DNA of 64,000 bases from a virus. The stretch spans positions 1 to 64,000 of IMG/VR virus record IMGVR_UViG_3300044712_000936. One strand, written 5' to 3'. The position numbers and the translations under genes were made by a program. Numbering within the stretch: the first letter of the stretch is position 1; each line of letters begins with the position of its first letter. Positions 7,598-61,561 of this stretch are shown here, piece by piece. The notes beneath the pieces were generated by a model, which saw only the letters and a list, made by a program, of their open reading frames with translations, was not told the origin of the DNA and searched no databases.

Positions 7598-7600
7598 AAG

Positions 7601-8417: not shown

Positions 8418-8422
8418 GTTAA

Positions 8423-34447: not shown

Positions 34448-35269
34448 TTATAGTCTACTACCATTTTCATACAAAGTCAACAATCTCTTAGCGGATATGT
34501 TATAATACTCGAAATTGTTCTCTGCCCCCGCTACTCGTCTCCCCAGTTTATAACATACTTCTGCCGTTGTTCCACTTCCCATAAAAGGATCAATCACTAA
34601 ATCACCGGGATTAGTTAAAGACAGCACTAATCTACGAACCAACTCAGTAGGAAACTGGCAGGGATGGGCTGTTTTTTCAGGATGTCCATTTTTTACATTA
34701 ACAATATCCCACACATCACCGGGATTTTTACCAAGCGGATTACAGGACAACTCTCCGGCCCTTTTGCCCCTGAAATACCGTTTGAGGGGAAATTTCTGCG
34801 GAACACGCACTGGATCTAGATTAAACACATAATTATCTGACTTAACAAACCATAAAATAGTTTCGTGTCTGCCAGAAAAACGCAGCTTGTCATGCATCCC
34901 AAAACCAAAAGTCCAGATAATACGATTCTTCAACTTCAAATCGTGCTTTTTAAAAAGGTCATAAAACAAAATATCCAAAGGAAACAGTTCTTTGCTGCGG
35001 CCTTTGCCCTGGATATTGTGCCCTACTTGCCAGCAAATACTTCCATTATCAGCCAACACGTCAACACAGGAATCAATAATACCCTGCATTTCAGCAAGGT
35101 AGGATTCCATAGGCTGTTTTTGTTCATAGGATTTTCCAATGTTGTAGGGAGGGGAAGTCACAATCAAACGCGCCTTATCACCAGACTGTTTGACTGTTTT
35201 TAACATATCTTGGCAGGAGCCTAAATAAAGAGCTATTTCAGAATAGGGTGAATAGTAATTTGAGAGCAT
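34448..35269 (-). CDS. Beta-class DNA amino-methyltransferase (N4-C/N6-A), resembling the M.BglII/M.BstYI group
   Basis: TSPPY precedes DPFMGSGTT; GSICWQVG, RFSGRHETILWF, NPLGKNPGDVW. Confidence 0.85.
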   Translation of the reverse strand: MLSNYYSPYSEIALYLGSCQDMLKTVKQSGDKARLIVTSPPYNIGKSYEQKQPMESYLAEMQGIIDSCVDVLADNGSICWQVGHNIQGKGRSKELFPLDILFYDLFKKHDLKLKNRIIWTFGFGMHDKLRFSGRHETILWFVKSDNYVFNLDPVRVPQKFPLKRYFRGKRAGELSCNPLGKNPGDVWDIVNVKNGHPEKTAHPCQFPTELVRRLVLSLTNPGDLVIDPFMGSGTTAEVCYKLGRRVAGAENNFEYYNISAKRLLTLYENGSRL

Positions 35270-35911: not shown

Positions 35912-35960
35912 TGGACCTTCTTGTGCGTGTATCTGTATTAATAATATCATAAGGCATTAG

Positions 35961-37661: not shown

Positions 37662-37662
37662 G

Positions 37663-38244
37663 TTAGTCTACTTTCGATGGTGTAATCTCTGTTTGCCCCT
37701 GATATTTACCATCTTTATCAGCGTAACTTGTCAAACAGGGAGCATTACCAGTAAGAAACAACAACTGACCAATACCTTCATTTGCATACACCTTCAAAAA
37801 GAAAGGGGTTGTATTGCTCAGTTCTAGGGTGATATACCCCTCCCATTCTGCCTCGATGGGTGTTGTATTCAAAACTAAACCTGTACGCGCATAGGTTGAC
37901 TTGCCAACGCATAGACCTGTAATATCTCTTGGAATACTGACATACTCTACTGATTTAGCTAAAGCGAAACCGTGCGGTGGCAGCACCACAAACTCGTCAA
38001 CTACTAGCTTATAGAACAGGTTATCGTCAAAATTCTTTGGATCTAATATTCCCGCCTCGTTTTTGGCAACCCAAAATTCGTTACCAACTCTGATGTCATA
38101 ACCAAACGATGATACACCATAAGAAATGACACCAGGACGCTTAATACCCAAAGAAAAGGGATCAATATGCTTAATCCCTTCTTCAATAATCCAGCGATCA
38201 TTTTTAAGCAAGCGTATTTTCCTCGTCTTGGATGTAATACTCAT
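37663..38244 (-). CDS. dcd: dCTP deaminase
   Basis: SYGVSSFGYD, GKSTYARTG, WEGYITLE, YANEGIGQ, KYQGQ. Confidence 0.95.
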   Translation of the reverse strand: MSITSKTRKIRLLKNDRWIIEEGIKHIDPFSLGIKRPGVISYGVSSFGYDIRVGNEFWVAKNEAGILDPKNFDDNLFYKLVVDEFVVLPPHGFALAKSVEYVSIPRDITGLCVGKSTYARTGLVLNTTPIEAEWEGYITLELSNTTPFFLKVYANEGIGQLLFLTGNAPCLTSYADKDGKYQGQTEITPSKVD

Positions 38245-38493
38245 TCAGCCACGAAAACAGCGAATCAATAACTTCACTTCGATCATAGCGGGGGTCAAAA
38301 GTTACAACAAACCAGTTTGCCTTTTTATTGACTGCATTCTCTGGATTAAAGAGAGAAACTTTCAAAACTCCCTCCAGCGTTTCAATCTTTTCCCATAACG
38401 CTGTATCGCAAAACAAGCAGAAAAGCCGTGACGACAAACCGAATTCATCTCTGGCAATATAGTTACGTTTCTTGACTAACTGTGTATGCATAT

Positions 38494-38835
38494 TTATCCT
38501 CTGTTTTTTTCGACTAGTTCAACAATTTCATACGACCTTGCAAAGAAGTCAGCACCAATAGGATATACCTCTCCTTTAACACCAATAGCCAAATAATCAC
38601 CGGGCTTACCCTCATAATTTGTACCCTCTGGTGTTACACAGGTGAAACTCTCATCCATCAAAATGACACGAGTAAGTACCGTTTTACGAGCGTATACAAC
38701 TTTATCCTGCAAACCATTAGTGATCACATCTTCAACATTCGTAAAAACTTTATTGGACACTGGGAAATACCTGCTTTCCATTTTTGAATAGATACAAAGT
38801 TTCGCCAGCAAATACAATCTTTGAAAGACAGTCAT
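38494..38835 (-). CDS. PGDYG-like protein
   Basis: TPEG...GKPGDYLAIGVKGEVYPI...FARSYE. Confidence 0.65.
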   Translation of the reverse strand: MTVFQRLYLLAKLCIYSKMESRYFPVSNKVFTNVEDVITNGLQDKVVYARKTVLTRVILMDESFTCVTPEGTNYEGKPGDYLAIGVKGEVYPIGADFFARSYEIVELVEKNRG

Positions 38836-38960
38836 CGGCTGAAATAGCCATAGCTACCTGTAAAGCTTCTGTTATTGTAGATATATCGTGACAAAACGCT
38901 TTCCACAATCCGTAGGTTGTCATTGTTTCTACGCGAAAGGTGCTGTGATCTTTTAGCCAT

Positions 38961-39494
38961 TCATCTACTATCTTTTGCATGATTATACTCCTGTGCATTC
39001 AATTCGTCAACCACATCTTGAGGGAGAATTTTACGAGTATCAAATTCTTCAAACCAATCGAAAGATCGCACTACATGAAACACCCCACAGGGAGGATGCA
39101 TGGGACCATATGTATTAATATATTCCGCCACACTTTGTTCTATGTGCTCCAATGTTTCCCCGCCATCAACAAGATGTTGATTAAAGTAAACAGAAACCCA
39201 TGCCGGATCTTCCTGCTCTACAAAAACAATGGTAGACTTGTAGTGCTGAATGGGATCTAAAAACTGTTTTTTATTAGAAAAAGCCATAAAAGATTCTGTA
39301 ATGTACTCAAGCAACGCTTTACCAAGACTATCGTCCCGATTTAACGCTTCGTGTAAAACCTTAGATATTTCAATTCTAATTTCAACAGCACGACTACCGT
39401 ACACAGGAGTATACCAGTCAGTACGGAACTTCTCGTTAAACATATTTTCCAGCATCTCGTCAATATAGGGTCTAACATGCTCCTTAGTATACAT
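38961..39494 (-). CDS. Hypothetical protein
   Basis: 177 aa, coupled to the MazG-like gene by a TAATG overlap. Confidence 0.6.
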   Translation of the reverse strand: MYTKEHVRPYIDEMLENMFNEKFRTDWYTPVYGSRAVEIRIEISKVLHEALNRDDSLGKALLEYITESFMAFSNKKQFLDPIQHYKSTIVFVEQEDPAWVSVYFNQHLVDGGETLEHIEQSVAEYINTYGPMHPPCGVFHVVRSFDWFEEFDTRKILPQDVVDELNAQEYNHAKDSR

Positions 39495-39808
39495 TAACGA
39501 TCATCTCCCGATCCAGCAATCACTCCACGCTCTGCCAGCTTAGCCAAATTGGTTCGAGATATATCGTCTAAAGTCAAACCACACCAATCAGCCAAATTAG
39601 CTACCATCCACATAACGTCGCCTAGTTCGCGTTTGATAGCCTGTCCATTATCGGGAGAAATTACTCCTCCCTGATCACGCACAATCTTGGCAAAAATTTC
39701 CAATACTTCCCCTACTTCCCCGGCAAGACCAAAACACAGATAGGGGGCGTTTAGGGCAGTAGGCAGAGCAAATTTAACAGCCTCACTTTGGTAGTCATTT
39801 AAATGCAT
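39494..39808 (-). CDS. MazG-like NTP pyrophosphohydrolase
   Basis: GLAGEVGEV...KRELGDVMW...NLAKLAER. Confidence 0.9.
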   Translation of the reverse strand: MHLNDYQSEAVKFALPTALNAPYLCFGLAGEVGEVLEIFAKIVRDQGGVISPDNGQAIKRELGDVMWMVANLADWCGLTLDDISRTNLAKLAERGVIAGSGDDR

Positions 39809-41567: not shown

Positions 41568-42332
41568 TCAGCTTATCCTTTCTAAAGAATTAATGTAGTA
41601 TTCCTTATTTGTCTCACTGCCGATGTACAGCCGATCCATCTCTTTACAGGCTTGGGCTGTAGTACCGCTGCCCATGAAAGGATCATATACAATATCAGTA
41701 TTGTTTCTGGAATAAACGCCAATTGCCCATTTAGGTAATTCTATAGGAAAAGCTGCACAGTGTTTATTAATTCGGGCACTGGACGACCAATCTTCTCCTA
41801 CAACGCCTCTTTGTGAGAGTTTACGATCTGTTACATATTCCAGATTAGAGCCGTTCTTCTTTCTGAACGTCCAGATATGCTCATAATCAAATACCGGACG
41901 TGGATGGGTGTTACAAACAAACGGGATACCCATTCTAGCAAATCGCTTGCGCCAGATACGAGTCGCCTGTAAATCCATTCCAGCAAGTTCAACACCCCAC
42001 CGATAATAATTGATGGACGCCGGATAACAAGCCGGAATATCGGATCGGTAAAACCGATTACCTGAATTGTAATAATCACCAAAATTAACAACCAGATAAC
42101 ACCCCGGCTTCAAGATGCGATTCCACTCTGTAAAACACCTTTCTAACAAAGAACAATAAGCAGCATAGGTAATTGTCCGTTCGTATTCTTTGTTTAGGTA
42201 ATAAGGTGGTGATGTAACAATCAGATCAATGGAACTATCGGGCATAGCTGCCATCGTACACAAACAATCTTCATTGTAAATAACGTTCGTTTTCATAGTA
42301 TTCATTATAGGACACTTTGCCTTGGATGTCAA
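41568..42332 (-). CDS. Beta-class DNA amino-methyltransferase (N4-C/N6-A)
   Basis: DLIVTSPPY, HCAAFP, YDPFMGSGTT. Confidence 0.9.
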   Translation of the reverse strand: MTSKAKCPIMNTMKTNVIYNEDCLCTMAAMPDSSIDLIVTSPPYYLNKEYERTITYAAYCSLLERCFTEWNRILKPGCYLVVNFGDYYNSGNRFYRSDIPACYPASINYYRWGVELAGMDLQATRIWRKRFARMGIPFVCNTHPRPVFDYEHIWTFRKKNGSNLEYVTDRKLSQRGVVGEDWSSSARINKHCAAFPIELPKWAIGVYSRNNTDIVYDPFMGSGTTAQACKEMDRLYIGSETNKEYYINSLERIS

Positions 42333-45007: not shown

Positions 45008-45844
45008 CTAATTAAAATCAGCAAAGGATAGGATATGAACAATGACATCAGCCGTAAAAGCGTTGCCTAAACATCTATACCGCTGTGTATCTGATGTTCT
45101 TTTACCGTTCGCCCCAAACTCTGTATACCCATCCGGTAAAGTCTGTAGCCGCTCACATTCCACAGGAGTTAACATCCGAATGACATTCCCCCGATCACTG
45201 ACCAGGGTTCTAGCCCCTACCGTATTTCCATAAACGATCTGCCTGTGAGATCTGTCCAGGTATTGCTTTTCGTTTGTTCCCCTGTAATACTGAGCATCAA
45301 TACACAAAGATTTGTCCCGATCTACGCTATCTCCCTCGAGAATGTCCTTCAGGAGAATATGCTTATCCTCGGGTTGAGTAACACCCTGTATATTCGTCCA
45401 GTAGAGCCGCCTCCGACTTTGAGCACTCACTAACGCACTGTTAATCTTAATTGGCTCTACTCCGATAGCAGCAGTTATCGTATCACGCCATTCTTTTTTA
45501 ACTACCGCAATGTTTTCTAAAACAAAATATTTAGGCTGGACTGCCTTTAGTATTCGCAAATACTCATAAAACAATCCCGAACGATCCCCTGCTAAACCTG
45601 CACCCAATCCAGCAGAAGATATATCCTGACAAGGTGAACCACCGATCAACAGATCAATAGGGGGCAGAGAAGCAACAGTCCTGACATCCCCCAACTGAAT
45701 AATAGCCGGATGGTTCTTAGCTGAAATCCGCAGAGCATACTTATCAATTTCAGAAGCGTAATAAGTACAATCCAGATGGAGACGATCAAGAGCGACCTTA
45801 GCTACAGAAATGCCGTCAAATAGACTTAGAACATTAAAAACCAT
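45008..45844 (-). CDS. DNA cytosine-5 methyltransferase
   Basis: LSLFDG, GGSPCQD, LENI, AQSRRRLYW, ECERLQ, LGNAF. Confidence 0.92.
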   Translation of the reverse strand: MVFNVLSLFDGISVAKVALDRLHLDCTYYASEIDKYALRISAKNHPAIIQLGDVRTVASLPPIDLLIGGSPCQDISSAGLGAGLAGDRSGLFYEYLRILKAVQPKYFVLENIAVVKKEWRDTITAAIGVEPIKINSALVSAQSRRRLYWTNIQGVTQPEDKHILLKDILEGDSVDRDKSLCIDAQYYRGTNEKQYLDRSHRQIVYGNTVGARTLVSDRGNVIRMLTPVECERLQTLPDGYTEFGANGKRTSDTQRYRCLGNAFTADVIVHILSFADFN

Positions 45845-46139
45845 GTGTGTTCTGATTCCATGCTGCATGATCATACTCTATTGCATCAAATAAAGCCCCC
45901 CACAAATCATTCTCCGATAGAATATAAATAACAGTCCCATCCCGTTTATGATCAGCAAGGTACTGATCAGCCTCTTCTTTACTATTAACTATAATAAGGG
46001 TAGAGTATTCTTCGTGTGGTGTGCCTGTATCAAAAACAAAGTATCTCATTATAATCTCCTAACTACGTGGAATGATGTATGGATCACGCTCTGGCACAAC
46101 AGGACTTCATGTTTTGAACTCTTTTGTCGGTCTTTAAGT

Positions 46140-47195
46140 TCATGAGTTATCTCCGTAAAATTCCAATTTAATAATATTCTTTCTCCAATCAGGCTTTTGA
46201 TCCCATATGTCAAACAAACAGGCTGCCCCTTTGGGGTAATTTTTCATAACCCATTGGGCAAAGGTTTTTCGATCTGTTTTGGGAGCCTGCTCATCATAAG
46301 CCATATCTAGTGTATAACGACAATTCATTATCCGATCAACAATCTCTGCATACCACTCTCTGACTTGCTCCCGATATTCTTCCGGTGCTGTTTTCATGTA
46401 TTCGTCTATTTTACCATTCTCATAAGCCTTTAATGTATTCTTAAAACTTATTCCAGAAATAAATTTATGAAGTTCCCTGTACCAGTCTGTTTTAAACTTC
46501 CAGCGTGATCCGTCTGAAAACTCTGCTACAAACCCTTCCTGATCTCGCATCATCCCTGTTGCTTCTAAAATCTGAGTAATGTTATTAAACACAACATGAG
46601 TAGGACGAGTAAATCCCCAATCATAAGCAAACGCATCTACTTCATAAAACGGAATATACCTTCCATCAGTCGGGTTACGCATAGCCAGCAGAACTAAATC
46701 CTCTGCGCCGTGATAGTCCACTACAATCTTGTTGTCGGGATAGACAATTTCAAACAACATCGTTAATTCGTAAGGAAGCTCACTCAAATTCCAATTTTCA
46801 TTAAGGTATTCTGTCGCCCACAAAGCCTGATCACTAGTGAATGACCCCCTGGTGGCAATCTTACAGCCGTTATCTCTATAAAGAATTCCAAGCGATCCAT
46901 CAACTTTGTCAGTGACCGACACAAGATGTCCAGTAGGATATTTACCAAACTCTCCAAAATTAAAGAACTTATCAAAGGGACGTGCTACTACTTCTGTTTT
47001 ATTGACGATCAATCCTCTACTAACTGTCTCAAAGAAGTTCCAGCGGTTAGCATATTGAGCAGCATTTGTATAGTTAAACAGATAAATCCCATTTTGTTCA
47101 ATAACTTTGACATCTCCGTATTGAGACCGGTCATTGAATCCTTGGGCAACGAGACCGATGATGTCTTGAATGGAAGTTATTTCTTTGGGTAACAT
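46140..47195 (-). CDS. ATP-dependent RNA ligase, T4 Rnl1-like
   Basis: SRGLI, RPFDKFFN, motif I KVDGS, ATRGSF, FEIV, EGFV, KFK. Confidence 0.9.
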   Translation of the reverse strand: MLPKEITSIQDIIGLVAQGFNDRSQYGDVKVIEQNGIYLFNYTNAAQYANRWNFFETVSRGLIVNKTEVVARPFDKFFNFGEFGKYPTGHLVSVTDKVDGSLGILYRDNGCKIATRGSFTSDQALWATEYLNENWNLSELPYELTMLFEIVYPDNKIVVDYHGAEDLVLLAMRNPTDGRYIPFYEVDAFAYDWGFTRPTHVVFNNITQILEATGMMRDQEGFVAEFSDGSRWKFKTDWYRELHKFISGISFKNTLKAYENGKIDEYMKTAPEEYREQVREWYAEIVDRIMNCRYTLDMAYDEQAPKTDRKTFAQWVMKNYPKGAACLFDIWDQKPDWRKNIIKLEFYGDNS

Positions 47196-47234
47196 AAGAT
47201 TATCCTTAAATACAAGAGTGAACTAATTACAACT

Positions 47235-47263
47235 ATTATAAACTAATTTAGAGAATAAGTCAA
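47235..47263 (-). promoter_or_regulatory. sigma70 promoter driving the leftward arm
   Basis: TTGACT, 17 bp, TATAAT on the minus strand. Confidence 0.8.
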
Positions 47264-48073
47264 TTCTAATTAGAAAACAAGATGTTTTTCAAACTAATTA
47301 GGTGTGCATAAATCTCGGTATAAGCATGTACCGGAAGCCCGCGCACGAGCGAATGAGGCGGTTACTCCCCTATTAGTAAGCCTAGTTCTGTAATCGGTGT
47401 CCTAACACTACGACACAAATAAAATAGGCACGTTGTAATATTGATTCACACAATTACGCTCATTACTCCATATTCCGTACATTCTAGGGAGTAATTATAA
47501 GCGAAGGATCGCCGCACTAATTCTAGTTTGTATTAGTTACTCTGTGATGTAATTAGATTATTGTTGTGCAAAATACCCTGGGATTTATATTACAGAATAT
47601 ATAGTGCCATATACTTTGTAATTAGACTACTAATTATTACTTTAAACATATATGAGGAGGAACGTTAAGACCGATCCTATTTTGGATACTTAGCATCATA
47701 ATAGTTAGCTTACTAATCATTAGCTTGCTAACGATCATAGGGTTGGGCCTATATATTCGCTTATCCGAATAAGTTATTAATCAGATAGTTCTTATAATAA
47801 TATAATCAGTCTCATATAGGCCATTGCCCTACACCCTAGATCAGCATTACAGATCAGCCATAGCAGTACACTCTGTTGTGTTGTTTGCTGTCTGTTCTTA
47901 TGCTCTGTGTGCTTCTCTGTTCTTTGTTTCCTACGATGCCTTTGTGACACTCTACAATGGCCCTATTTGACGAGATCCTATATATACGCGCATGGAAAGA
48001 CCCGTTTAACGCCATTTGTGCGACATATACGATTAGTACCAATTTAACTAACTAAGACAGGAGAAAAACGGCA

Positions 48074-48876
48074 ACGAAAGACTTTAATCTGATCAAGGCT
48101 TGTTTATGGGTTTTGGTGATCTCGATCTTGTATCGTCTCAACATCTTATCGGATGCAAGCGCCACGCTTATTTTGTTGTGCATTATCTATATCAAACTGG
48201 CGATCTTGTCCGATGTAGTCAAAGGAAAATAACATGATCAAATGGCTGTTTATTCTCGTGATGATTGCCATGCTTAACCAGAGCACGGATCAAAAATTCG
48301 GTATGAATAAACCTCACTCCGATCTAGACTGGAATCACTCTCAGGAATTCGTGCGCGAAAATGGCGAAAACGTTTTGTTTCATTTGTGCCCTCTGTTTAG
48401 TCCTGTGTGTGGATAACGAAAGGAATTAAAAATGATCCGCGTAAACTATACCGATCACAAAACCTCAGGCAGTTTGTTCTTTAAAACTCGTGAGGATCTC
48501 AACAAATGGCTGAGTCGTTTCGATCTGAATGCATACTCTCAGATCAAACAGGTTAAAAATGTGACTCACGTCAAAAACACCAAACGTCAATTTAAAGCGA
48601 CAATCGCGTTTGATCGGTAGTTCAAAAATGCATCTGTGATGCTCTCTGATGCCCCTATTTAAGCCGATAGGGGCAATTCTCATATAAGTAGACAAAGGGA
48701 GTAAAACGGCAATGAAAACACCACTAGCGGAATTGAAAGCAGAACTAACACGCACAATTGTTGATATGTACAGACAAGCAGCAAAAAAACCCTTGTCAGA
48801 AAAATCAAAGGGAGAATTACAAGGTTATGAGAATGTTTTAGCATGGATCGAACTACAAGAGTCAAAGGGAAAATAA
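48074..48876 (+). other. Operon of small early ORFs: 48074-48232 (ACG start, membrane), 48234-48416, 48432-48620, 48712-48876
   Basis: Each has an SD (AGGAG, AAGGA or GGGAG); manual translation of the two not in the track gives 52 and 54 aa, both ending KGK*. Confidence 0.55.
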
Positions 48877-48899
48877 AAACCCTTTGTACAAAGGTTTTT

Positions 48900-48931
48900 G
48901 AGTCTACTCTCATAAAGTAGACTCTTTTTTT
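48900..48931 (+). terminator. Intrinsic terminator
   Basis: GAGTCTACT-CTCATAA-AGTAGACTC-TTTTTTT. Confidence 0.85.
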
Positions 48932-49568
48932 GTTTATTGTTTAAATTATTCCCCTCTGTTTTATCTGGTTTATGGTTTCCCCTATTTCTATCAATAATAT
49001 TATATATTTATGTCCATCAATATATTTAAAAACAATAACTTATAAGCTTATATTTTTTATGATAAGTGTTTAAACAAATATATATTTATAGCTATCGATA
49101 CAATTCTACGATTCTGTGGTAATTAAAATCATCATTATCTAGTTTAATTAGTAAGATATTACAGAATAGTCCAGTTTCTACTTACACAGATTCAAACTTT
49201 TGATATACAAGATCACTATCTTGTTTTTTAACGTGATTTAACATTCGTGAGGGGAGAATCAGATCCCTAAAACAATTCTAAATACAAAAACAAACTCTTA
49301 AAAGACCCTTTACCGATTGTACTGCCCAACAAGGCCGATCTTCGACGTTTTAGGTCTTAACATAGCGGCCCTCTACAATGCCCCGTACAGCGATTCTAGT
49401 GCCCCTGCAAGCGCGGTTATTGATCCTGTAATTAGCTCACAAATAACAACTAGGCCTCATTTGTGAACATTGTAAATTTTTTTAAGAGAAAAGACCCAAA
49501 CAGCCCACAAATAGCGACATTTAAATCAGTACCAATATTGACCAATCAAAACAGGAGAGCAAACGAAA

Positions 49569-49813
49569 ATGAACACTGTCAAAGTTTACACAATGGCAAC
49601 AATGGGCTATATGGCGTTTTTGTTTTTCGTTTTGTTCGTGATTTTCGTCTCAGTGTTCAGTTATGCTATTTGGAGCATGTAACCATGAACCTCATTACTC
49701 TGATCTGGTTTTTACTCTCTCTGTTGTTTGGACATTTGTCGGATCCGTGCGATTCCCCTGAGGATCATAGCAACATCGGAATCGGCATTGATTACTACAC
49801 TTGCCAGCAATAG
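49569..49813 (+). other. Two small hydrophobic peptides (49569-49682, 49685-49813)
   Basis: SD ACAGGAG then MNTVKVY...FLFFVLFVIF..., followed by MNLITLIWFLLSLLFG.... Confidence 0.45.
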
Positions 49814-50466
49814 GGCATAAACAATCGAATAAACAAAGAAAAGCCAGCAAAAACTGGCTGTTTTTGATTCCGCAAATGTAAATTTTTTAGAACACAGGAT
49901 AAGAAAATGAGAGAGGAAATTAGAACATAAAACGAATTCCGCCTCATAGGGGATTGTGTTGTTTAAAAATATCCCCTACAATCTAAGTGTAACAAAGAAA
50001 AACAGAATAAGCGTTCTAGGCAAAGGCAAAACGAAAATGTTCAAAATCAACAGAAAATCTAGCAAACCACTAGGAAACACACTTAACCAAAGTGAACGAG
50101 AATTGCTAGTTGGTCTGATTTTGGGCATCAGAGAAACATACGCTATTGATATGGGCAAATTATCAATGGAACTAATGAGCACAAAACCAGAGAGAGGGGA
50201 ACCAATTTCTTATGAGGATTTTATAAGCGCGTTGTACTAAGCCGATCCGGGCAAGACTCAATACGAACAGATCGCAACCGAACCAAACGACATTAAGACC
50301 CGACTCAACCTTAACAATAGAACAGATAACAGGGCAGAAAACACCCTTAATGTAATGGCCCTCTATCGGACAAACTACCGAGTCAAAAATTGAAACTTAA
50401 ACTTACTTTGAAAAGACTCAGCAAAAACTTTAAAATCTGAGTGTAGCAAACAGGAGAGCAAAGGCA

Positions 50467-51123
50467 ATGACTCAAACGACACGCGAACTAGTTCGCATAA
50501 ACCTATCGTCAAAGGACAATGAGATCCAAACGCTTAACGCTATAGCGAACAGCATTAATGCCACAGATCCTAACTCTTATCTGGCCTCTCTGTTCACTCC
50601 TGAGTTTATTTCATGGGTTTCTCAAATGATCCACAGTGACATTATGCCTGATATGGAATCGGCATTAAAAGCAAACGAAAATAGCGCCCACAAAAACTCA
50701 GTTGAACACTCTCAAGCTGAGATCACAATCACAAAGCAAAGCGAATTGATTGACTCTCAGGCAGAAAGAATCGAAACATTAACCGAACGGATCGATCTCA
50801 AAACATCGGAGATCGATTACCTAAAACGGGAACAGAGAGATCTAGAGATCGCAGGAAAAAAACAGGAGTTAAAAGAGGCTTTTCACTTGACAGAGAAAGA
50901 TCTAGAGGTGGTTTGGTTCATGATCAAACGGTACTCGATTTTATATCACACTGATTACCTCTGGCGCGGTTGGTCACAGTATACGATCCGTAAGCTTGAG
51001 AAAAACGGACTAATCGACAACGAACCAGAAAACGGGATCTACAGTCTATCAATGAGGGTTGAACACTGGATCACCCAAAACATGACAAGTGAACTATTGT
51101 ACTCTGTACAGATGTTTGGATAA
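50467..51123 (+). CDS. Coiled-coil protein with possible C-terminal winged-helix
   Basis: SD AGGAG; central heptad region; LTEKDL...TIRKLEKNGLI...YSLS. Confidence 0.65.
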   Translation: MTQTTRELVRINLSSKDNEIQTLNAIANSINATDPNSYLASLFTPEFISWVSQMIHSDIMPDMESALKANENSAHKNSVEHSQAEITITKQSELIDSQAERIETLTERIDLKTSEIDYLKREQRDLEIAGKKQELKEAFHLTEKDLEVVWFMIKRYSILYHTDYLWRGWSQYTIRKLEKNGLIDNEPENGIYSLSMRVEHWITQNMTSELLYSVQMFG

Positions 51124-51255
51124 TGCCCCTATTTAATGAGGTAGGGGCAGGACAGCATAAACAGCAAAGGATCCTAATCTGTAGACACTATTCACCCAAA
51201 AAACACGACATAAATATAACGACCTGTATCTATAACACGAAAGGAAAAAAATCAA

Positions 51256-51471
51256 ATGCCTAACTTTTTTAAGACCGTAAAGCACGAATACGAACAGCAA
51301 AAAGAAACCAACGCAAAGAATGCGCGTACAATCGCGGAATTGCGCGCCCATTTATCGCATATGATCGAGTCTTGCAATTCCTCATTGGATGTAATTGATC
51401 CGCGTGATGATATTGCATTGGCACAAATGATCACACGGAAAAACACATGTGTTGAGATCCGCTTTCTATGA
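51256..51471 (+). CDS. Hypothetical protein
   Basis: 71 aa with SD AAGGA. Confidence 0.5.
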   Translation: MPNFFKTVKHEYEQQKETNAKNARTIAELRAHLSHMIESCNSSLDVIDPRDDIALAQMITRKNTCVEIRFL

Positions 51472-51635
51472 TGCCGCAGCAAACGGAGAAACAGAGGAGA
51501 TCGGCAGGGCATGTAGACGTATAGTGCGCATACTGTCGTAAGATTATTTATTAACTTATATTTCTTTTCACTTAGTATTTTTTAATATCCGCATTAAAAA
51601 TATAGGTTAGCGGATCGGACAAAGGAAAGGCGTAT

Positions 51636-52913
51636 ATGATCTCTGAATTCGAACAAACCTATGAAAATGATTATTTTCCATACGAACAGATCAATGATCT
51701 GATCTGGGAATGGATACGGCAAAACGATATTAGGCGGGCTTACCTTAACGTTGAATACGCGATGGATATTTGCCGCGAAAATTACGGGAAACTTAAGCCC
51801 GGTAAAATGATCGCAAACGCGATCAAAAAATTGATCCATATGCGGATCGATCAAATAAGGGAGGACAATTACGAGTACCAAAAACCGATTCTTGAAAAAT
51901 TGGAATCGCTTAAAATCTCTCCTGAGACAGTAACATTTTGGGGCAATGCCATAGCCAACCAACCGAAAGAAAAAATCACGATCCGTTTAACCTACGGTTG
52001 TAAAGGATCTGCACGTGAATACTATCATGTAGGTAGTTGTTGGTGGGGAGGGTATGAAACTAGTAGGGATTACTTGGAATCTAGCTATGGCGGAGCAATT
52101 CGCGCTTATCGTAATGATGAGATTGTAGGGCGAGTCTGGTTTATTCCCTATAGTGATGGAATCATCCTGTTTAACGCCTATGGTAAGGGGGAATTAGGGA
52201 GAATCGGATCTTGGAGCAACCTACTAAAACGATCCTTTCCTGATTATTTTGTTAGCAAGGTAATGCTGGAATTCGGGGGGGATCCTGGAGTCTTATTCCA
52301 GAATTCAGAGAGCACTAATCTGTACATTGGTCCTAACAAAATCAACGATGAAACGATCAGAATCGATCTGACTCGTCCTGAGAAATTTAAATACGCCAAA
52401 GATTTAACGTTTTGCTCTCATTGCGGGATCCCTATCATCGGCGGATCTGGTTATTCCACAACCGACAACGGAGTCATTTGTTACGCTTGTCAGAATCTTT
52501 TCTACGCCAGATCACGATCCACAGGGGCATGGATCCCAATTGAAAACGCGATAGAAGTTTATGATGCGTACAATGATCGGTACTATGAATCGCCTGACTC
52601 GCCTGACATTATCTATGCTAGGGCAATAAACCGTTATGTTTACATTACGGATTACTGGGTGGATGTTTTTGGTACTGCCCACAGGAGAGGCGCTAGATCC
52701 TGCTTCCGTTGTCGCGTCTCTGGTAACATTTATCCTGTAGATCGCTTAGTGTGGACACAGATCGGACCAGTAGATCGGACCAATTACGATCCTGAGGTTC
52801 ACGTTTTGGGAATTCCAGAACAACCGCAATATGCACCGAGTCTCAGTTTTGCGGATCGCCAGAATCAAATGGCCCTCCGGCGGCAATGGCAACAGTTAAC
52901 TAGTCTCATGTGA
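51636..52913 (+). CDS. Cys-rich hypothetical protein, paralog 1 of 4
   Basis: Core LTYGCKG..YYH..SCWWGGY..SR..GGAIRAY..GRVWF.P..DGI.LFNAYG plus CxxC repeats. Confidence 0.8.
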   Translation: MISEFEQTYENDYFPYEQINDLIWEWIRQNDIRRAYLNVEYAMDICRENYGKLKPGKMIANAIKKLIHMRIDQIREDNYEYQKPILEKLESLKISPETVTFWGNAIANQPKEKITIRLTYGCKGSAREYYHVGSCWWGGYETSRDYLESSYGGAIRAYRNDEIVGRVWFIPYSDGIILFNAYGKGELGRIGSWSNLLKRSFPDYFVSKVMLEFGGDPGVLFQNSESTNLYIGPNKINDETIRIDLTRPEKFKYAKDLTFCSHCGIPIIGGSGYSTTDNGVICYACQNLFYARSRSTGAWIPIENAIEVYDAYNDRYYESPDSPDIIYARAINRYVYITDYWVDVFGTAHRRGARSCFRCRVSGNIYPVDRLVWTQIGPVDRTNYDPEVHVLGIPEQPQYAPSLSFADRQNQMALRRQWQQLTSLM

Positions 52914-52929
52914 GATTAGTTCGCTATCT

Positions 52930-53325
52930 CTCTAGCCTCTCTCAGGAGAGGATATTCTATTTTATCTCAGTGTTGTGTAAGCTTCTGTAATGCCCTACAA
53001 TGGCCCTAATTAGGGAGATCGGTAGAAAACCACCTAAACAAGCATATCGCGTTAAATAGGGGCATTACAGAGGCTTACAGGGGCATTGTAGAAACAATTC
53101 AACACACAAAACTTAAGAGAGGGGTACAAAACTGGCTGTTTTTGTTCATGCTCTCCTGAGACGCTAAGGTAAGCAATTCAACACTGGCATAGATCCCAGG
53201 GTAATTTTTGGCCTATCCTGAGATGCTAAAATAGGCCTCACAATGCCCTACAATGCCCCCGTTTGATAGGTGCATGGTAGTTGATACCACTATATAACTG
53301 ATCGCCCCGTTTTGGGGCATTTGAT
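52930..53325. repeat. Nested inverted repeats/long hairpins
   Basis: TGTAAGCTTCTGTAATGCCC (52976-52995) vs GGGCATTACAGAGGCTTACA (53060-53079); TCTCAGGAGAG vs CTCTCCTGAGA; CAATGCCCC/GGGGCATTTG. Confidence 0.75.
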
Positions 53326-53362
53326 CGCGTTTTCTTTCTCTCAACTATAGAATAGGTGCAAT

Positions 53363-53581
53363 ATGTTTAGAACCATTAAAACAGAAAAAATTACAGAAAA
53401 AAGAATTCGGCTTAATTTCTATTTAAATAACGCTTATATGGGTTATTATGAGGCTTTGCCTTATATGGCGATAAGTGAACTACTAATACGTATTAACAAA
53501 GGCTATACGCTAGTAGAAGACTCAGCCCTACTAGTTAGCCCGAAAAGCACCTACGGGATTGACGAAAATTCCCGGCCTTAA
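53363..53581 (+). CDS. Hypothetical protein
   Basis: 72 aa with SD AGGTG. Confidence 0.5.
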   Translation: MFRTIKTEKITEKRIRLNFYLNNAYMGYYEALPYMAISELLIRINKGYTLVEDSALLVSPKSTYGIDENSRP

Positions 53582-53659
53582 TTTGTCAAATAGACATGAT
53601 AAATATACCCACAAAAATGAGATCGGCCCATTCTGATTCCGGCCTATTAAGATCGATCT

Positions 53660-54010
53660 AACGGATCGGCGTGCAACGTAGGGGACTCGGCGTGTAAATT
53701 TAAAACGGCAATGAGAGGGAACAGCGTGCAAAGATCCGGCCTAATTGACTCATACTATGGAATCGGCGTGCAACTTTTCGGCACTTTCGGCGTGCAAAGA
53801 ACGACTAAAGAATCAGCGTGCAAACCCTAGTAATAGAGGTGGAGGGTTGGGAATTGTATATATATACATAGAAAATGCTTTTCCTTGTCCAATGGATTGC
53901 CTATATAGTATATATAGATATATAGAACCTTTAAAAGAACAGTATAAAAGATCAAAACCTTTAAAAAGGAATCAGATCTTAGATCAATATAGAAAACCTT
54001 TAAAAGAAAT
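53660..54010. repeat. Cluster of CRGCGTGCAA direct repeats followed by an AT-rich tract (origin-like)
   Basis: Five copies plus one variant in 53665-53825, then (TA)n and AACCTTTAAAA x3. Confidence 0.6.
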
Positions 54011-54099
54011 AAGAATAGATCAAATACATTGACTCTATAATTAGAATATGATACAGTATATCTAAAAGAACACTATTAAAAACGAAAGGTTTAATATAA

Positions 54100-55413: not shown

Positions 55414-56661
55414 ATGGACATAAAAGAAACTACCAAAATTGCAGAAAGTCACAAGCATTATTCGCGGGACACGATTCGTAATGCTGTGATGTACATCAAA
55501 GATAAGTACCGCGTCGGAATCTATGTGGGCAATTTTAGTAAACTCTGTGAGTCTATCGAAGCAAGCGAAAATGACAAAAATGCCCCTAAGCCAGCCAAGT
55601 TAGTTGCTAAGGAATTTTTAACCTATCATGGTATCCATTTAACGGCTGATGATAAAGCGGTAATTGGTAAAATGTTCGCTGATTCTATCCGTAAATCGTC
55701 CTATAAAGTTTCCCTAACTCTAGGTTGCGATGGATCAGCAAAGGACTATTATCACGCTGATTCTTGTTGGTGGGGTGGCTACTCCGATTCGCGGGAATAT
55801 GTCGCCTATAACGGTGGTGGTGCTATCCGTGCTTATGATCCTGAGACTAACAAACTGTGTGGGCGTGTGTGGTTCCTTCCGGCTGATGATGGGATTGTTA
55901 TCTTTAACAGCTATGGGGTAAACGAACTACAGCACACAGAATCATGGGCAACTATAGCCTCTGAATTGTTATCCGCCCCCTATTGTAAATGTACTTTACA
56001 TTTGCAGCACGATCAGTATTTTTTCTTGAATGCTGGCGTGTATATCTATGTAGGTCCGAAAGTTGAACCAGATAAGCGAATCACGATCACCCTCGAGGAG
56101 TTTGACGAAAGAATCTATGATGATTCTGTTTACGCTTATTGCTCTGATTGTGATTGTGAGATTAGAAACGAGGACGATGCTTACTACACTGTTAACGGTA
56201 CAGTGTGCGAAAGTTGCTTTGATAGTTACGTATGTGTAGAATCAGAGGGCGGAGACTATTACCCTGAGGATGATTGTGTCTATTTGCTTCATGGGCGTTA
56301 TTCGGAATGGTTTCTAACGGATAGCTCTGATGTAGTCTCAACTATTAATGGTGCGTATGAATTAGTAGAAAACTGCATTGAGGACGTTTACGGCAATTAT
56401 TATCAGATGGATGATGATATTGACGATGTATTTCTGTGTGATGCTACAGAAGAATACTACCCTATTAGCGAACTTCTGACCCTTGCTGATGGTCGTCACA
56501 TTGCCGAGTCGAACTATGATCGGGATGAATACGGGCCACTAGAGGGAGAAGAACCAGAAGAGGACGATGACGAACCAGAGATCGCCCCTGTAGTTTTGCC
56601 CCTCCTTTCTGTAGGCTACTTTGGTTACATTCACTTTCAACTTCCGAACCTTGTATATTAG
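55414..56661 (+). CDS. Cys-rich hypothetical protein, paralog 2 of 4 (acidic tail)
   Basis: Same conserved core as paralog 1. Confidence 0.8.
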   Translation: MDIKETTKIAESHKHYSRDTIRNAVMYIKDKYRVGIYVGNFSKLCESIEASENDKNAPKPAKLVAKEFLTYHGIHLTADDKAVIGKMFADSIRKSSYKVSLTLGCDGSAKDYYHADSCWWGGYSDSREYVAYNGGGAIRAYDPETNKLCGRVWFLPADDGIVIFNSYGVNELQHTESWATIASELLSAPYCKCTLHLQHDQYFFLNAGVYIYVGPKVEPDKRITITLEEFDERIYDDSVYAYCSDCDCEIRNEDDAYYTVNGTVCESCFDSYVCVESEGGDYYPEDDCVYLLHGRYSEWFLTDSSDVVSTINGAYELVENCIEDVYGNYYQMDDDIDDVFLCDATEEYYPISELLTLADGRHIAESNYDRDEYGPLEGEEPEEDDDEPEIAPVVLPLLSVGYFGYIHFQLPNLVY

Positions 56662-58322: not shown

Positions 58323-59288
58323 ATGATGATTCAAGACGGTTACACACAGATTTACTCTGGTTTCGCGGGTGTTTCTCGTCGTTGTCTGGATAACGTCTAT
58401 ACGTGGTTGATTAACCGCTACAATGTCAGTAATCCAGCACAATACGAACACTTTAACGCTTTTGTAGAAACCGTGCAGAAAACGGAATCGCGCCCAACTA
58501 AGGCTATCTGCAAATTTTTCCACGACGTTTTTAACGTGGACATTAATTCATATGACAAGGCAACAGCCGGAACATATATCCGTAAAAATTCCCTCATGGG
58601 ATCCTACAAATTCGTTTTTACCTACGGTTGTGCTGGCAATGCTGCTGATTATTACCACAGTAATTCCTGTTGGTTCCACGAGTATCCAACTTCGCGTGAT
58701 ATGCTTGAGGGAAATGGTGGGGGTGCAATTCGGGCCTACACTGTTGATACCAACGACATTACTGGTCGGGTCTGGTTCTTGCCTCACGACGATGGTTTGG
58801 TGTTGTTCAACAGCTACGGACAGGGAGATTTACAGCATACCCAAACGTGGGGTGCTGTGGTAGCTCATTTGTTGGATACTTTGACCTGTGAAGCAAAACT
58901 GAATATTGACTCTCCCTATATGATTTACATTAACGGATCTAAAGCGGCATATGTAGGGCCAAAAGTAGTCAACGACACTAAGCAAATCGACGTCACATTG
59001 AAAACGCCCACTGTTTTCCATTACACTCCTGTGCAATACTGCCATGATTGTAATCGTGTTTTGGTTCGAGGTGGCGAACGAGTGTACATTAGTATGGCTG
59101 ATTATTATGTATGTGATAAGTGCGTTGATCGTTATACCTATGTCCAAAACCGTGTAGGTATGTACCCCTCTCATATGTGTGTGAGAGTGTACGTTCACGG
59201 TGCATTTATCGGTAACTATTTGTGTACAGAACCGGGGATTGTTTACGACGAAAAAATGGGATACTATACCTTTCGAGAACGAATGTAA
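58323..59288 (+). CDS. Cys-rich hypothetical protein, paralog 3 of 4
   Basis: Same conserved core as paralog 1. Confidence 0.8.
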   Translation: MMIQDGYTQIYSGFAGVSRRCLDNVYTWLINRYNVSNPAQYEHFNAFVETVQKTESRPTKAICKFFHDVFNVDINSYDKATAGTYIRKNSLMGSYKFVFTYGCAGNAADYYHSNSCWFHEYPTSRDMLEGNGGGAIRAYTVDTNDITGRVWFLPHDDGLVLFNSYGQGDLQHTQTWGAVVAHLLDTLTCEAKLNIDSPYMIYINGSKAAYVGPKVVNDTKQIDVTLKTPTVFHYTPVQYCHDCNRVLVRGGERVYISMADYYVCDKCVDRYTYVQNRVGMYPSHMCVRVYVHGAFIGNYLCTEPGIVYDEKMGYYTFRERM

Positions 59289-59306: not shown

Positions 59307-60230
59307 ATGAAAACAAATCGACTACAAAAATACTGCAATGTTTCCATTGAACACCTACGCAAGATAGGAAAGTTTACGCCTTGTACTCGTGACGGTGCGG
59401 GATATACCTTTATTGATCGCGGATCAAATGTGCTGGCAGTAGCTCACATCGATACCGTGCAACAGGGAACAAACTTTAAGGTTACTGGTTTAAATGGCGG
59501 TGCAGTGTACTCCCCTCGTTTGGATGATAGACTCGGCGCTTACACGATTATAGAATATCTACCATCGGTAGGTGTCAAAATGGACGTGCTGCTTTGTGAG
59601 GACGAAGAAACTATGCAAAGCACAGCGGCCTACTTTCAAACGCTAAAGAAATACAATTGGATGGTTGAGTTTGATCGCGGTGGTCGTGACACAGTTTTGT
59701 ATCAATATCACTATGATAAAACCTTTTCTGATGAACTAGAACGACACGGTTTTATCTTGGGGCACGGAACCTATAGCGATATTGCTGACTTGGGACATTT
59801 AGGCTGTTTAGGTGTGAATTGTTCGGCTGGTTATTACAATTACCATACCAAAGACGCCTTTGTTTTAGTTGAAGTGTGGCAGAAGTCAGTTGATAGTTTT
59901 GTCAGTTTCTATAACGATAACAAAGACACCTATTATCCTCACGACAAGACTAACGATTACTACAACGAAAGTTCACTGTGGGATCGGGACGATTACTACT
60001 ACGGGACAGGCAAGTACGGTACTACGTATTATGGTAACAAAAAGAATAATCGTGCTCTGGTCAATGTAGAGTGGACTAAATGCCCTACCTGTGAAGAAGT
60101 CCGTACAGATCGGGCAGATCGTAACCTGATCGACTACTTTGGAATGTGTTCAGAGTGTTTGATTTACGTGGATCGTTATCAACAGAAGTACAATAAGAAT
60201 CCTAATCCCCCCACTACTCAGGGGGGATGA
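59307..60230 (+). CDS. M28/M20-like Zn metallopeptidase
   Basis: AHIDTV, LDDRLG, DEE, EFDRGG, GTYSD, NCSAGYYNYHT. Confidence 0.8.
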   Translation: MKTNRLQKYCNVSIEHLRKIGKFTPCTRDGAGYTFIDRGSNVLAVAHIDTVQQGTNFKVTGLNGGAVYSPRLDDRLGAYTIIEYLPSVGVKMDVLLCEDEETMQSTAAYFQTLKKYNWMVEFDRGGRDTVLYQYHYDKTFSDELERHGFILGHGTYSDIADLGHLGCLGVNCSAGYYNYHTKDAFVLVEVWQKSVDSFVSFYNDNKDTYYPHDKTNDYYNESSLWDRDDYYYGTGKYGTTYYGNKKNNRALVNVEWTKCPTCEEVRTDRADRNLIDYFGMCSECLIYVDRYQQKYNKNPNPPTTQGG

Positions 60231-61561
60231 TACCTATTGAGAGAAAGGCTATAACGATGGATTTAAAAGATACGTCTTTTGTGTACACGACTGATGGTAT
60301 GTCTTATGATCCAGATACCTTGTACAAGGCGTTAGAGTGGTTGCACCATTCACATCATATTGAGTGTTGCCCCTGCCATACCTTGCCAGCCATAAGCGAA
60401 TACCTAGAAAATACCACAGCTAAACCAGCTAAAGCTATTTCTAAGTATTTTGCTGATCATTATGGTATTAAACTGGCGACAGAACAGCGTACAGAGTTTG
60501 GCAACCGGGTTAGCTGTGCTCGTATGGCACGCACCTATAAGGTGGTATTAACCCTCGGTTGTCAGGGTAACTCGGATGATTATTATCATGAACGGTCTTG
60601 CTGGTGGGGTAGTTATAGCATTTCTCGTGACTTTGTTGAGTTTAACGGCGGCGGCGCTGTCCGTGTTTACACCATAGATGGAGACATTCAGGGTAGAGTG
60701 TGGTTTTTGCCCTTCGATGATGGTATTGTTCTGTTTAATAGTTATGGTCTAGGCGAATTACAGCATGTACATTCGTGGGGGCCAATAGTCGCACAGCTAT
60801 TAGATACAGATTTTTGTAAGTCAACTATGGAAATTCTCAACAATCGGGGACATCTTTACATTAACAGTGAGGTTTCTGCTTATGTAGGGCCAAAAATTGT
60901 ACCTATTTCAACTAAACACTGTAAGATTCGGCTATCTATCCCTGACAGGTTCGTATACAGCCCTGCTAGGGTCTGTAGTCATTGTGAAAGGGTATTTAGC
61001 GATGGCGGAGATGTTCGTTTGCTGGAATTTAATGATCAGTATGTTTGTGGAGGTTGCCTAGACGAATATTATGCCTACGATGTGATAGATCGTATGTATA
61101 AGCCCAAAGAATTAATGCAAAAGGTTTGGGGCATGTTCCAATACTCTACGGCACGTCAAAAATGGTTTTCAGTTGTGCCAAGTGACGCGGTATATATAGA
61201 TTCAATGGGCTATTGTTTACCAGATTGTTTGGTTGATGATGTTTATGGTACTCAACATCTAGTAGGATCTGGTACTTATTTTCGCTGTGACTTCTCCGAT
61301 AAACTCTATCCTAGAAGTGAGTGGACAAGGACTGTATTAGGTGCGGTGGCTAAATCTGTTGTAGCTACCGACGAATTTAAAGCTAAGGTAGCTGAATACG
61401 AAAAGACGCAAGAGAAAGCCAGAGATGAGTGGAGACAGGAACGTCTTTTTCGCTCTACAGGAATAACACAAAAGAGTGCGTCATTCAATTTTAAACCACC
61501 GTCTATTGACTGGGGAACACTGTTTACAAACTTTGTCGATGACGATCAGGACCATTCTTAA
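60227..61561 (+). CDS. Cys-rich hypothetical protein, paralog 4 of 4
   Basis: Same conserved core as paralog 1. Confidence 0.8.
   Translation: MIPIERKAITMDLKDTSFVYTTDGMSYDPDTLYKALEWLHHSHHIECCPCHTLPAISEYLENTTAKPAKAISKYFADHYGIKLATEQRTEFGNRVSCARMARTYKVVLTLGCQGNSDDYYHERSCWWGSYSISRDFVEFNGGGAVRVYTIDGDIQGRVWFLPFDDGIVLFNSYGLGELQHVHSWGPIVAQLLDTDFCKSTMEILNNRGHLYINSEVSAYVGPKIVPISTKHCKIRLSIPDRFVYSPARVCSHCERVFSDGGDVRLLEFNDQYVCGGCLDEYYAYDVIDRMYKPKELMQKVWGMFQYSTARQKWFSVVPSDAVYIDSMGYCLPDCLVDDVYGTQHLVGSGTYFRCDFSDKLYPRSEWTRTVLGAVAKSVVATDEFKAKVAEYEKTQEKARDEWRQERLFRSTGITQKSASFNFKPPSIDWGTLFTNFVDDDQDHS

Follow-up and report, generated by a model that had tools for sequence, protein, structure and literature searches.

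The window analysed here comprises bases 1 to 64,000 of an IMG/VR virus record of 87,169 bp (G000), the genome of an uncultured soil siphovirus of ~87 kb. A divergent control region in it is flanked on the left by genes for an RNA ligase and a cytosine methyltransferase and on the right by small early open reading frames (ORFs), a 218-aa ORF and a member of a paralogous gene family (paralogue 1), followed by iteron-like repeats and an AT-rich tract (Table 1). The samples were rhizosphere metagenomes. Two rhizosphere DNA runs, represented by contigs only, contained a near-identical strain of G000 with 1 difference within the block described below; two apparent joints in these contigs were rejected as spurious, as they rest on 20- to 24-nt matches.

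Table 1. Features of the GATC island of G000 and its neighbourhood
Feature	Coordinates	Strand	Evidence or GATC content
N6/N4 DNA methyltransferase, RsrI/MboIIA-like, specificity not assigned (context only)	34448..35269	-	
Second N6/N4 DNA methyltransferase, specificity not assigned (context only)	41568..42332	-	
C5 cytosine DNA methyltransferase, left shoulder of island	45008..45874	-	PF00145 3e-36, PHROG 116; 9 GATC, 10.4/kb
Maximum-likelihood GATC island	45193..54021		Poisson segment scan and per-kb counts
T4 Rnl1-like RNA ligase, first gene of leftward operon	46140..47195	-	PF09511, PHROG 562; 8 GATC
Divergent non-coding control region	47196..48100		
Core of island, block of the original prediction	47460..54060		91 GATC, 13.8/kb
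Small early ORFs (60, 62, 54, 37, 42 and ~67 aa), no known family, long spacers	48234..50240	+	
218-aa ORF, no known family	50467..51123	+	14 GATC
425-aa paralogue 1, Cys/His-motif family	51636..52913	+	28 GATC
Six direct repeats of TCGGCGTGCAA, iteron-like, right island edge	53666..53823	+	
AT-rich tract with three AAAACCTTTAAAA 13-mer repeats and the last four island GATC	53840..54060		

GATC sites are strongly concentrated in this region. The original prediction had counted ~90 of them between 47.5 and 54.0 kb (~14/kb, up to ~20/kb at 50.5 to 53 kb) against ~3.5/kb expected, and our recount agreed, with 91 sites in the block, a density of 19.6/kb at 50.5 to 53 kb and 3.3 to 3.8 per kb expected from base composition. 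The remaining 80.6 kb of G000 contain 365 sites (4.5/kb), at a Markov observed/expected ratio of 1.00. Compared with the rest of the genome, GATC is the top tetramer of the block (91 observed versus 29.9 expected, 3.0-fold, z 11.2), followed by AAAA (z 6.9); no other 4-bp palindrome behaved like it, and no flanking consensus or longer motif was found around the block sites. Both coding (17.6/kb) and non-coding DNA (9.9/kb) are enriched. In a scan statistic, the densest 5-kb window had 74 GATC, whereas 1000 random placements gave 50 at most, and a Poisson segment scan delimited a maximum-likelihood segment with 111 sites (12.6/kb versus 4.4/kb elsewhere, LLR 37.9). Since this segment starts at 45193, the island also takes in the first two leftward genes; the limits originally proposed thus hold for the core of the island, the best-fit island being wider. 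With a length of about 6.6 to 8.8 kb, about half of it coding, it spans the divergent control region together with the first genes to either side of it, consistent with the earlier placement of the block next to the point of transcriptional divergence. Its right edge is sharp, density falling to background past the AT-rich tract. No GATC occurs in the leftward promoters at 47235-47292, the strongest sigma-70-like ones in the divergent region.

Within the block, 41 of the 90 gaps between neighbouring sites are no longer than 34 bp (30±3.6 expected), a spacing that would suit cooperative binding; helical phasing of the sites was not detected. Two sub-clusters are particularly dense: sites 50790, 50794, 50811, 50839 and 50847 (5 within 61 bp) in the 218-aa ORF, and sites 51809, 51821, 51833, 51845 and 51849, four of which follow each other at exact 12-bp intervals, in paralogue 1. 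Both (50790-50850 and 51809-51852) are intragenic GATC clusters by the published definition of at least 4 sites with a mean spacing below 18 bp inside coding sequence (PMC493266).

To separate effects on DNA from effects on protein, the paralogues were compared. Exactly as originally counted, paralogue 1 contains 28 GATC, against 6, 3 and 6 in its paralogues outside the island (55414-56661, 58323-59288 and 60227-61561). Synonymous-codon shuffling, a check that the original prediction had called for, left the excess in place, both in paralogue 1 (28 versus 13.8±2.5) and in the 218-aa ORF (14 versus 6.9±1.7), with 0 of 500 shuffles reaching the observed count in either case; the three outside paralogues were at expectation. 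The sites in paralogue 1 are spread over the three codon phases (9, 12 and 7), and among the paralogues only this one has its amino-acid and codon choice bent towards GATC. A nucleotide search of the block against INPHARED phages yielded no match, and single-protein searches with the in-island paralogue returned the query protein as the sole match. A family search around the paralogues gave 891 relatives; a metagenome scan with the family matched only contigs of 1.4 to 5.8 kb, whose length was insufficient for analysis.

The original prediction had also proposed looking for the pattern in related phages. It was found in three distant relatives (G002, G003 and G007; capsid ~51% and portal 48-53% identical to G000), each with a GATC island at the syntenic position where its early small-gene operon begins, beside a strand switch. 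In G003, a homologue of the RNA ligase (2862-3926) marks the syntenic point. The islands comprise 35 sites in 2.5 kb in G002 (3.05-fold, tetramer rank 1), 67 sites in 5.2 kb in G003 (4.4-fold, rank 1, z 13) and 53 sites in 4.7 kb in G007 (2.3-fold, rank 2), where enrichment is absent from the first 2.5 kb of this operon. Synonymous shuffling again left an excess, of 67 versus 40 in G003 (z 6.6), 31 versus 19.4 in G002 (z 4.2) and 47 versus 33.7 in G007 (z 3.8). No protein homology was detected between the islands of G000 and these relatives, nor do the relatives' islands have regulatory motifs (CTACAATG-type, CGTGCAA) in common; the early regions are mosaic, and the gene content of the G000 island is not shared. 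The pattern did not extend to all relatives: two members of the same clade, G001 and G006, have weak or null islands (LLR 7.0 and 8.5), and none were found in relatives of 55 to 63 kb.

Because the excess persists in the shuffles, is confined to one paralogue and recurs at the same position in relatives without gene homology, GATC density acts on the DNA itself and not on the proteins, in line with the original view that the enrichment is positional. The density is thus selected on DNA, as a property of genome position and not of particular genes or of a longer motif, and the islands are conserved by position, not by sequence.

The original remark that phages avoid restriction palindromes applies here with particular force, and the island runs against it. 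In G000 and these relatives, about 20 palindromic hexamers are purged genome-wide, also inside the islands (2 observed versus 20.3 expected in G000; 1 versus 22.2 in G003). Since the island takes part in this purge, the block is not a recent import. CGATCG has 0 copies in all four genomes from G000 to G003, although 5.5 would be expected inside the G000 island alone; a reading as the cyanobacterial HIP1 element was rejected, as neither CGATCG nor GCGATCGC occurs. No such avoidance is seen for TGATCA (ratio 0.89), which Dam methylation protects from cleavage, to our knowledge alone among the hexamers with a GATC core. Counts of AGATCT and GGATCC are close to zero in G002 and G003, and both words are common in G000 and G001; in G007, CGATCG, AGATCT and GGATCC are all at 0 and TGATCA at 52. 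Surviving copies of purged words were inspected for overlap with GATC. Both TCCGGA survivors in G000 read GATCCGGA, and 6 of 8 in G000 to G002 overlap GATC (~19% expected), as do 42 of 55 ATCGAT survivors in G002, G007, G008 and G010 (~47% expected); TCTAGA and TCGCGA survivors show no such overlap. These overlap signatures are mixed, small in number and chosen from several motifs. Together with the hexamer pattern, they may be read as indirect signs of adenine methylation at GATC.

No Dam-type methyltransferase (PF02086 or PF05869) was found in G000, and G002 and G003, both with strong islands, lack N6/N4 enzymes (no PF02086 or PF01555); any methylation would therefore be host-made. This makes a phage-made version of the originally suggested self mark unlikely. 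Among the ~60 G000 proteins scanned against Pfam, PHROGs or both, none had a methylation-reader domain (SeqA, pacase or OxyR/Lrp type). Related phage contigs, one of them identical to G002, occur in metagenome-assembled genome (MAG) bins assigned to Nitrosotalea, Methylobacter and Saccharibacteria; these bins are unreliable and were thus not used as host evidence.

The best explanation for the island is a zone of high GATC density, maintained by selection over the first genes flanking the divergent early control region. Tentatively, it may serve as an adenine-methylation signal of the density type, linking early genes or the origin to replication status. Methylation, reader and timing function, as we infer them, would work as follows. 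A Dam-type enzyme of the host would methylate the GATC adenines, and the fully methylated infecting genome would then differ across 7 to 9 kb from copies that replicate fast and are hemi- or unmethylated. A reader of this density, for which SeqA-like cooperative binding or the altered duplex stability proposed for intragenic GATC clusters are candidates, could tie early-gene expression to replication status, possibly together with firing of the adjacent iteron/AT-rich origin-like element; as a result, the early module would be shut down on replicated copies. The GATC-free strongest promoters, the missing helical phasing, the missing DnaA-box cluster and the weak or null islands in G001 and G006 count against such a density signal, as does the size of known Dam-controlled elements, which is hundreds of bp and not 7 to 9 kb.

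It is also conceivable, albeit unlikely, that the island is the flank of a phage origin whose firing or sequestration is controlled by GATC density as at oriC. The original prediction had named an origin among its alternatives, and the six TCGGCGTGCAA repeats followed by the AT-rich tract with four GATC do lie exactly at the island end; an equivalent was not seen beside the G003 island, where neither iterons nor an origin-like element were found. Repeat families in the divergent region adjoining the G002 island, and a polymerase, primase and helicase encoded by G000 itself, also fit an origin, as does a cumulative GC-skew minimum inside the G000 island at ~51 kb, although this minimum is confounded by the strand switch. 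However, the enrichment extends over 7 to 9 kb and is strongest within coding DNA, and a search for a DnaA-box cluster found none. A compact origin or pac element of a few hundred bp does not describe the island, the origin-like element being confined to its right edge.

We assign a similarly low probability to a role in DNA entry, put forward in the original prediction as a first-injected end, in which the island would enter or be exposed first and its dense host-methylated GATC would act as a self mark or shield before phage proteins are made. The genes that look earliest, to the left and right of the divergent region, lie in the island, and the break of the linear G003 contig falls exactly in that region. 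None of the contigs shows the block to be a physical end: the ends of G000 overlap by 127 bp, G001 is likewise classed as terminally repeated (overlaps arising at the assembly ends in both cases), and G002 turned up in two permutations that break at different points. Against an entry role, the initial 2.5 kb of the early operon in G007 are devoid of enrichment, and a defence triggered by unmethylated sites would favour fewer sites, not more. The first-step-transfer (pre-early) DNA of T5 is the textbook first-injected end. Like the island, it forms a well-delimited block of small genes of unassigned function that opens the infection programme and has word statistics of its own. It is defined by its terminal position and an injection stop signal, and differs from the island in its ordinary GATC density: T5 bases 1-10219 contain 1 to 5 GATC per kb, equal to the next 20 kb, and thus no excess comparable to the GATC-dense island.

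An island without function, a compositional trace left by past recombination with a GATC-rich donor or by local mutation bias, is disfavoured and improbable. Mosaic early regions, island genes not shared with relatives and differences in some other tetramers between block and rest would agree with it. However, independent islands occupy the same position in four genomes only 48-53% identical in capsid or portal, are included in the hexamer purge of their genomes, exceed every other word by far in GATC and, among the paralogues, bias amino acids and codons only in the in-island copy.

About as improbable is selection on the RNA, with GAUC in early transcripts as, for example, an endoribonuclease target for clearing early mRNA, much as RegB acts at GGAG in T4 early mRNA. 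Coding enrichment does exceed non-coding, the first genes of both divergent operons are included and the palindrome is identical in both transcripts; however, enrichment also extends to the non-coding spacers and the AT-rich origin-like tract, we know of no GAUC-specific nuclease, and a palindrome that is familiar as a methylation site in double-stranded DNA speaks for recognition of DNA. A by-product of restriction, through overlapping Dam methylation that protects other sites or through a decoy for GATC-directed enzymes, is very improbable: the lineage is under extreme restriction pressure and the TCCGGA and ATCGAT sites that survive preferentially overlap GATC, but few of the 91 GATC overlap such words, cutting of a decoy would destroy the genome, and the GATC effect is local where restriction pressure is genome-wide.

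The island shares features with several known systems. Like the Dam/SeqA clusters of E. coli oriC and the dnaA promoter and of phage P1 pac, it has a local GATC excess far above background, sites close enough for cooperative binding and an adjoining iteron/AT-rich element whose AT-rich part contains GATC; unlike these clusters of 150 to 300 bp, it measures 7 to 9 kb and lacks helical phasing. Removal of restriction and Dam sites is a familiar trait of phage genomes, and McClelland in 1985 and Deschavanne and Radman in 1991 reportedly described counter-selection of GATC in enterobacterial phages. There, too, GATC frequency reflects selection linked to Dam and mismatch repair, but the sign is opposite: G000 shows a local three-fold excess, with the remainder at expectation. 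Intragenic GATC clusters of E. coli and Salmonella have been proposed to block transcription when not fully methylated (Hénaut 1996; Riva 2004, PMC493266). The island resembles them in having GATC inside coding sequence against codon expectation; those clusters, however, are isolated in single chromosomal genes, whereas in G000 a whole early phage module is covered at a density conserved by position.

A lineage under an extreme purge thus maintains a single 4-bp palindrome at three- to fourfold background density, only over its early module. That this density is kept while the early genes turn over completely implies a kilobase-scale reader of GATC density or methylation early in infection, a mechanism for which no description was found in the literature searched. 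Saturation of an early module with the site of a host orphan methylase might even be an undescribed general phage strategy, a density-dependent epigenetic signal (a timer distinguishing parental from replicated DNA, or a positive self mark) that evolved repeatedly in unrelated lineages and was kept despite the purge of nearly every other short palindrome; we regard this as doubtful. If the reading as a density signal is right, it would provide a sequence signature for locating early modules in uncultured phages and for inferring GATC methylation in their hosts, and would add an epigenetic layer to phage temporal control or to self-marking.

The stretch at 47460-54060 of the phage genome (G000) contained 91 GATC sites (13.8/kb), in good agreement with the ∼90 sites and ∼14/kb of the original prediction, versus 365 sites (4.5/kb) in the other 80.6 kb, where the number was exactly the Markov expectation. 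When tetramers were ranked by their frequency in this block versus the rest, GATC came first (3.04-fold, z 11.2) and AAAA second (z 6.9), and no other 4-bp palindrome was comparably enriched in the block. Since no flanking consensus was found around the 91 sites, the enriched word is GATC itself. Sites occurred in each of the three codon phases and were enriched in both coding (17.6/kb) and noncoding (9.9/kb) DNA. In a test for cooperative binding, 41 of 90 neighbor gaps measured ≤34 bp, versus 30 ± 3.6 expected; helical phasing of the block's sites was not detected. The comparison of 28 GATC in a 425-aa ORF within the block versus 6, 3, and 6 in its three paralogs outside was reproduced exactly, and the excess survived synonymous-codon shuffling: the in-block copy yielded 13.8 ± 2.5 sites (0 of 500 shuffles reached 28) and a 218-aa ORF 6.9 ± 1.7 versus 14 observed, with the outside paralogs at expectation. 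The shuffled mean was itself 2 to 3 times higher for the in-block copy than for the outside paralogs, and thus codon and amino acid choice have also been bent.

A Poisson segment scan placed the island at 45193-54021 (111 sites; log-likelihood ratio [LLR], 37.9), so that the predicted density held, but the best-fitting span was wider than 47460-54060. G000 is a siphovirus genome of 87,169 bp from rhizosphere metagenomes, of which the window covers bases 1-64000. There was no close cultured phage, its terminase being ≤30% identical to actinophage terminases. From 1 to 47195 all genes are on the minus strand, and from ∼48.1 kb onward nearly all are on the plus strand; PolA, a primase, a DnaB-like helicase, a Ro60-like RNA-binding protein, and an integrase-like recombinase are encoded beyond the window. 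The divergent control region lies within the island, together with the first two leftward genes, and the island's ORFs are small, without known family, and separated by long spacers. Its right edge is sharp and coincides with six TCGGCGTGCAA repeats (iterons), followed by an AT-rich tract holding three AAAACCTTTAAAA repeats and the final four GATC of the island.

Other repeated words were observed in this region. Five exact copies of CTACAATG(G/C)CCC, as well as GCCCCTA-type hairpins, were confined to intergenic spacers of the island and probably serve as promoters or terminators of early transcription; neither was conserved in relatives. Several copies of the word CTAATTAG or TAATTAG, found in the divergent noncoding region beside the leftward promoters, may be operator sites. 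The four paralogs had no Pfam or PHROG match but shared invariant G..SC..R..GG.R.Y..R..N.Y motifs and two CxxC pairs; with the family as a search profile, 891 relatives were retrieved (314 at E ≤ 1e-10), and the related genome G002 carries three tandem copies.

Features of G000 and of the related genome G003
Feature	Coordinates	Strand	Remark
Tape measure	3443-7597	minus
Large terminase	28289-29911	minus
Orphan DNA methyltransferase	34448-35269
HNH endonuclease	35489-35950
Nucleotide-metabolism cluster	36957-39808		leftward operon; ThyX (PF02511), dCTP deaminase-like (PF22769), MazG
Orphan DNA methyltransferase	41568-42332
Orphan DNA methyltransferase, C5	45008-45874	minus	one of first two leftward genes in island
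T4 Rnl1-like RNA ligase		minus	one of first two leftward genes in island
CTAATTAG / TAATTAG words	47219-47640
CTACAATG(G/C)CCC copies	47952, 49373, 52995, 53080, 53248		copy at 53080 on minus strand
In-block paralog	51636-52913	plus	425 aa
TCGGCGTGCAA repeats	53666-53823		six copies
Outside paralogs	55414-56661, 58323-59288, 60227-61561
G003 ∼40-nt element	79531, 79888, 81204, 81536, 81931		five copies, intergenic

Relatives were located via terminase, capsid, and portal searches, and whole genomes were compared. The pattern recurred in three of them. In G002 (82 kb, collinear), 35 GATC were found in 44.9-47.5 kb (3.05-fold, tetramer rank 1, LLR 16); in G003 (84 kb, inverted), 67 to 70 were found in ∼5 kb at 77.7-83.7 kb (4.4-fold, rank 1, z 13, LLR 48.6); and in G007 (79 kb), 53 were found in 25.3-30.0 kb (2.3-fold, LLR 12.8), within the early operon and at a distance of 2.5-7 kb from the strand switch. 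The G003 homolog of the RNA ligase lies at 2862-3926, which shows that the divergent region, and the side of it on which the island lies, are the same as in G000. All three exceeded the synonymous-shuffle expectation (z 6.6 in G003, 4.2 in G002, and 3.8 in G007). The pattern was weak or null in G001 and G006 (LLR 7.0 and 8.5) and null in three genomes of 55-63 kb that are more distantly related (LLR 3.9-6.8). Neither protein homology nor regulatory motifs common to the relatives' islands were detectable; the conserved feature is GATC density at a position. Fifteen island sites of G003 come from five copies of a ∼40-nt element, each containing three GATC and a hairpin (GTGATCT/AGATCAC) with a perfect stem and a 4-nt loop, which makes a candidate methylation-sensitive regulatory site; without these sites, the island was still ∼4-fold above background. 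The opposite regime was seen in G005, a more distant relative from a Saccharibacteria MAG bin (capsid 34% identical), which strongly avoids GATC (35 in 56.7 kb, 0.62/kb).

Approximately 20 palindromic hexamers (e.g., CCCGGG, GAGCTC, CCTAGG, TGGCCA, AGTACT, and CGATCG) were nearly eliminated from the window and from G001-G003, G006, and G007. Outside the islands, 8 were observed versus 226 expected in G000 and 3 versus 298 in G003; inside, the numbers were 2 versus 20.3 and 1 versus 22.2. CGATCG, for which 5.5 copies were expected in the G000 island alone, was absent from seven of nine genomes checked (18 copies in G009 and 2 in G010). Because the islands share this purge, CGATCG included, GATC is selected for and its restriction-prone extensions are selected against, and by its word content the island is not an import. 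GGCC stood at 0.43 of expectation, which together with the hexamer purge suggests that the hosts carry many type II restriction systems.

G000 has three methyltransferases, and no Dam-family enzyme was found in this genome. G002 and G003 lack any N6/N4 or D12-class enzyme despite their strong islands; a mark made by the phages themselves therefore cannot account for all of the islands. TGATCA was not avoided (ratio, 0.89), and CGATCG was missing from all four of G000-G003; AGATCT and GGATCC were near zero in G002, G003, and G007 and common in G000 and G001. TGATCA is the only GATC-core hexamer known to be protected from cleavage by Dam methylation. TCCGGA occurred at just two sites in G000, both within GATCCGGA, and surviving ATCGAT sites overlapped GATC above expectation in four genomes. 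These word statistics, with small numbers and mixed signals, are no more than suggestive of host adenine methylation.

The original prediction of a first-entering, self-marked leader now seems unlikely. G000 and G001 have assembly end overlaps, the 127-bp terminal overlap of G000 looking like that of a circular contig, and G002 turned up in two differently permuted forms. The second is an 82,041-bp contig (G004:C17) in a "Nitrosotalea sp." MAG from a mine sample, which, at 99.996% identity to G002, is evidently a mis-binned phage; since it is circularly permuted, the ends of the G002 contig do not correspond to physical ends. Against a leader, the first-step-transfer DNA of T5 has ordinary GATC density, unlike the G000 island. 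No more probable is an extended origin zone, an alternative also raised at the outset: an iteron/AT-rich element abuts the island in G000 and repeat families adjoin it in G002, but G003 has no such element at its island, and no DnaA-box cluster was found. The cumulative GC-skew minimum near 51 kb is confounded by the strand switch. Over the initial 4 kb of the early region on the plus strand (47000-51500), GC skew was ∼0, with clearly negative values on its left and positive ones on its right. The word CGTGCAA showed strong strand bias, with 17 plus-strand copies at 53670-82160, beginning with the six-iteron cluster at the right edge of the island, versus 3 on the minus strand genome-wide; a Chi-like or promoter-linked polar signal is one possibility.

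That the density has no function is quite improbable, and a GAUC signal at the RNA level ranks slightly lower. A by-product of restriction is the least probable.

What is best supported is that, in a small clade of soil and subsurface siphoviruses of 78-87 kb, selection keeps up a position-specific island of GATC density across the early module. No account of phage early modules rich in GATC at kilobase scale turned up in a full-text literature search; the classical phage result is counter-selection of GATC, the opposite of the island. As to mechanism, we tentatively rank first a methylation-state signal of kilobase scale that would set the parental genome apart from its replicated copies. Such a signal would act on early transcription, a neighboring origin, or both, and would extend the idea proposed for intragenic GATC clusters (PMC493266), and likewise that of sequestration by SeqA, a reader of methylation state.
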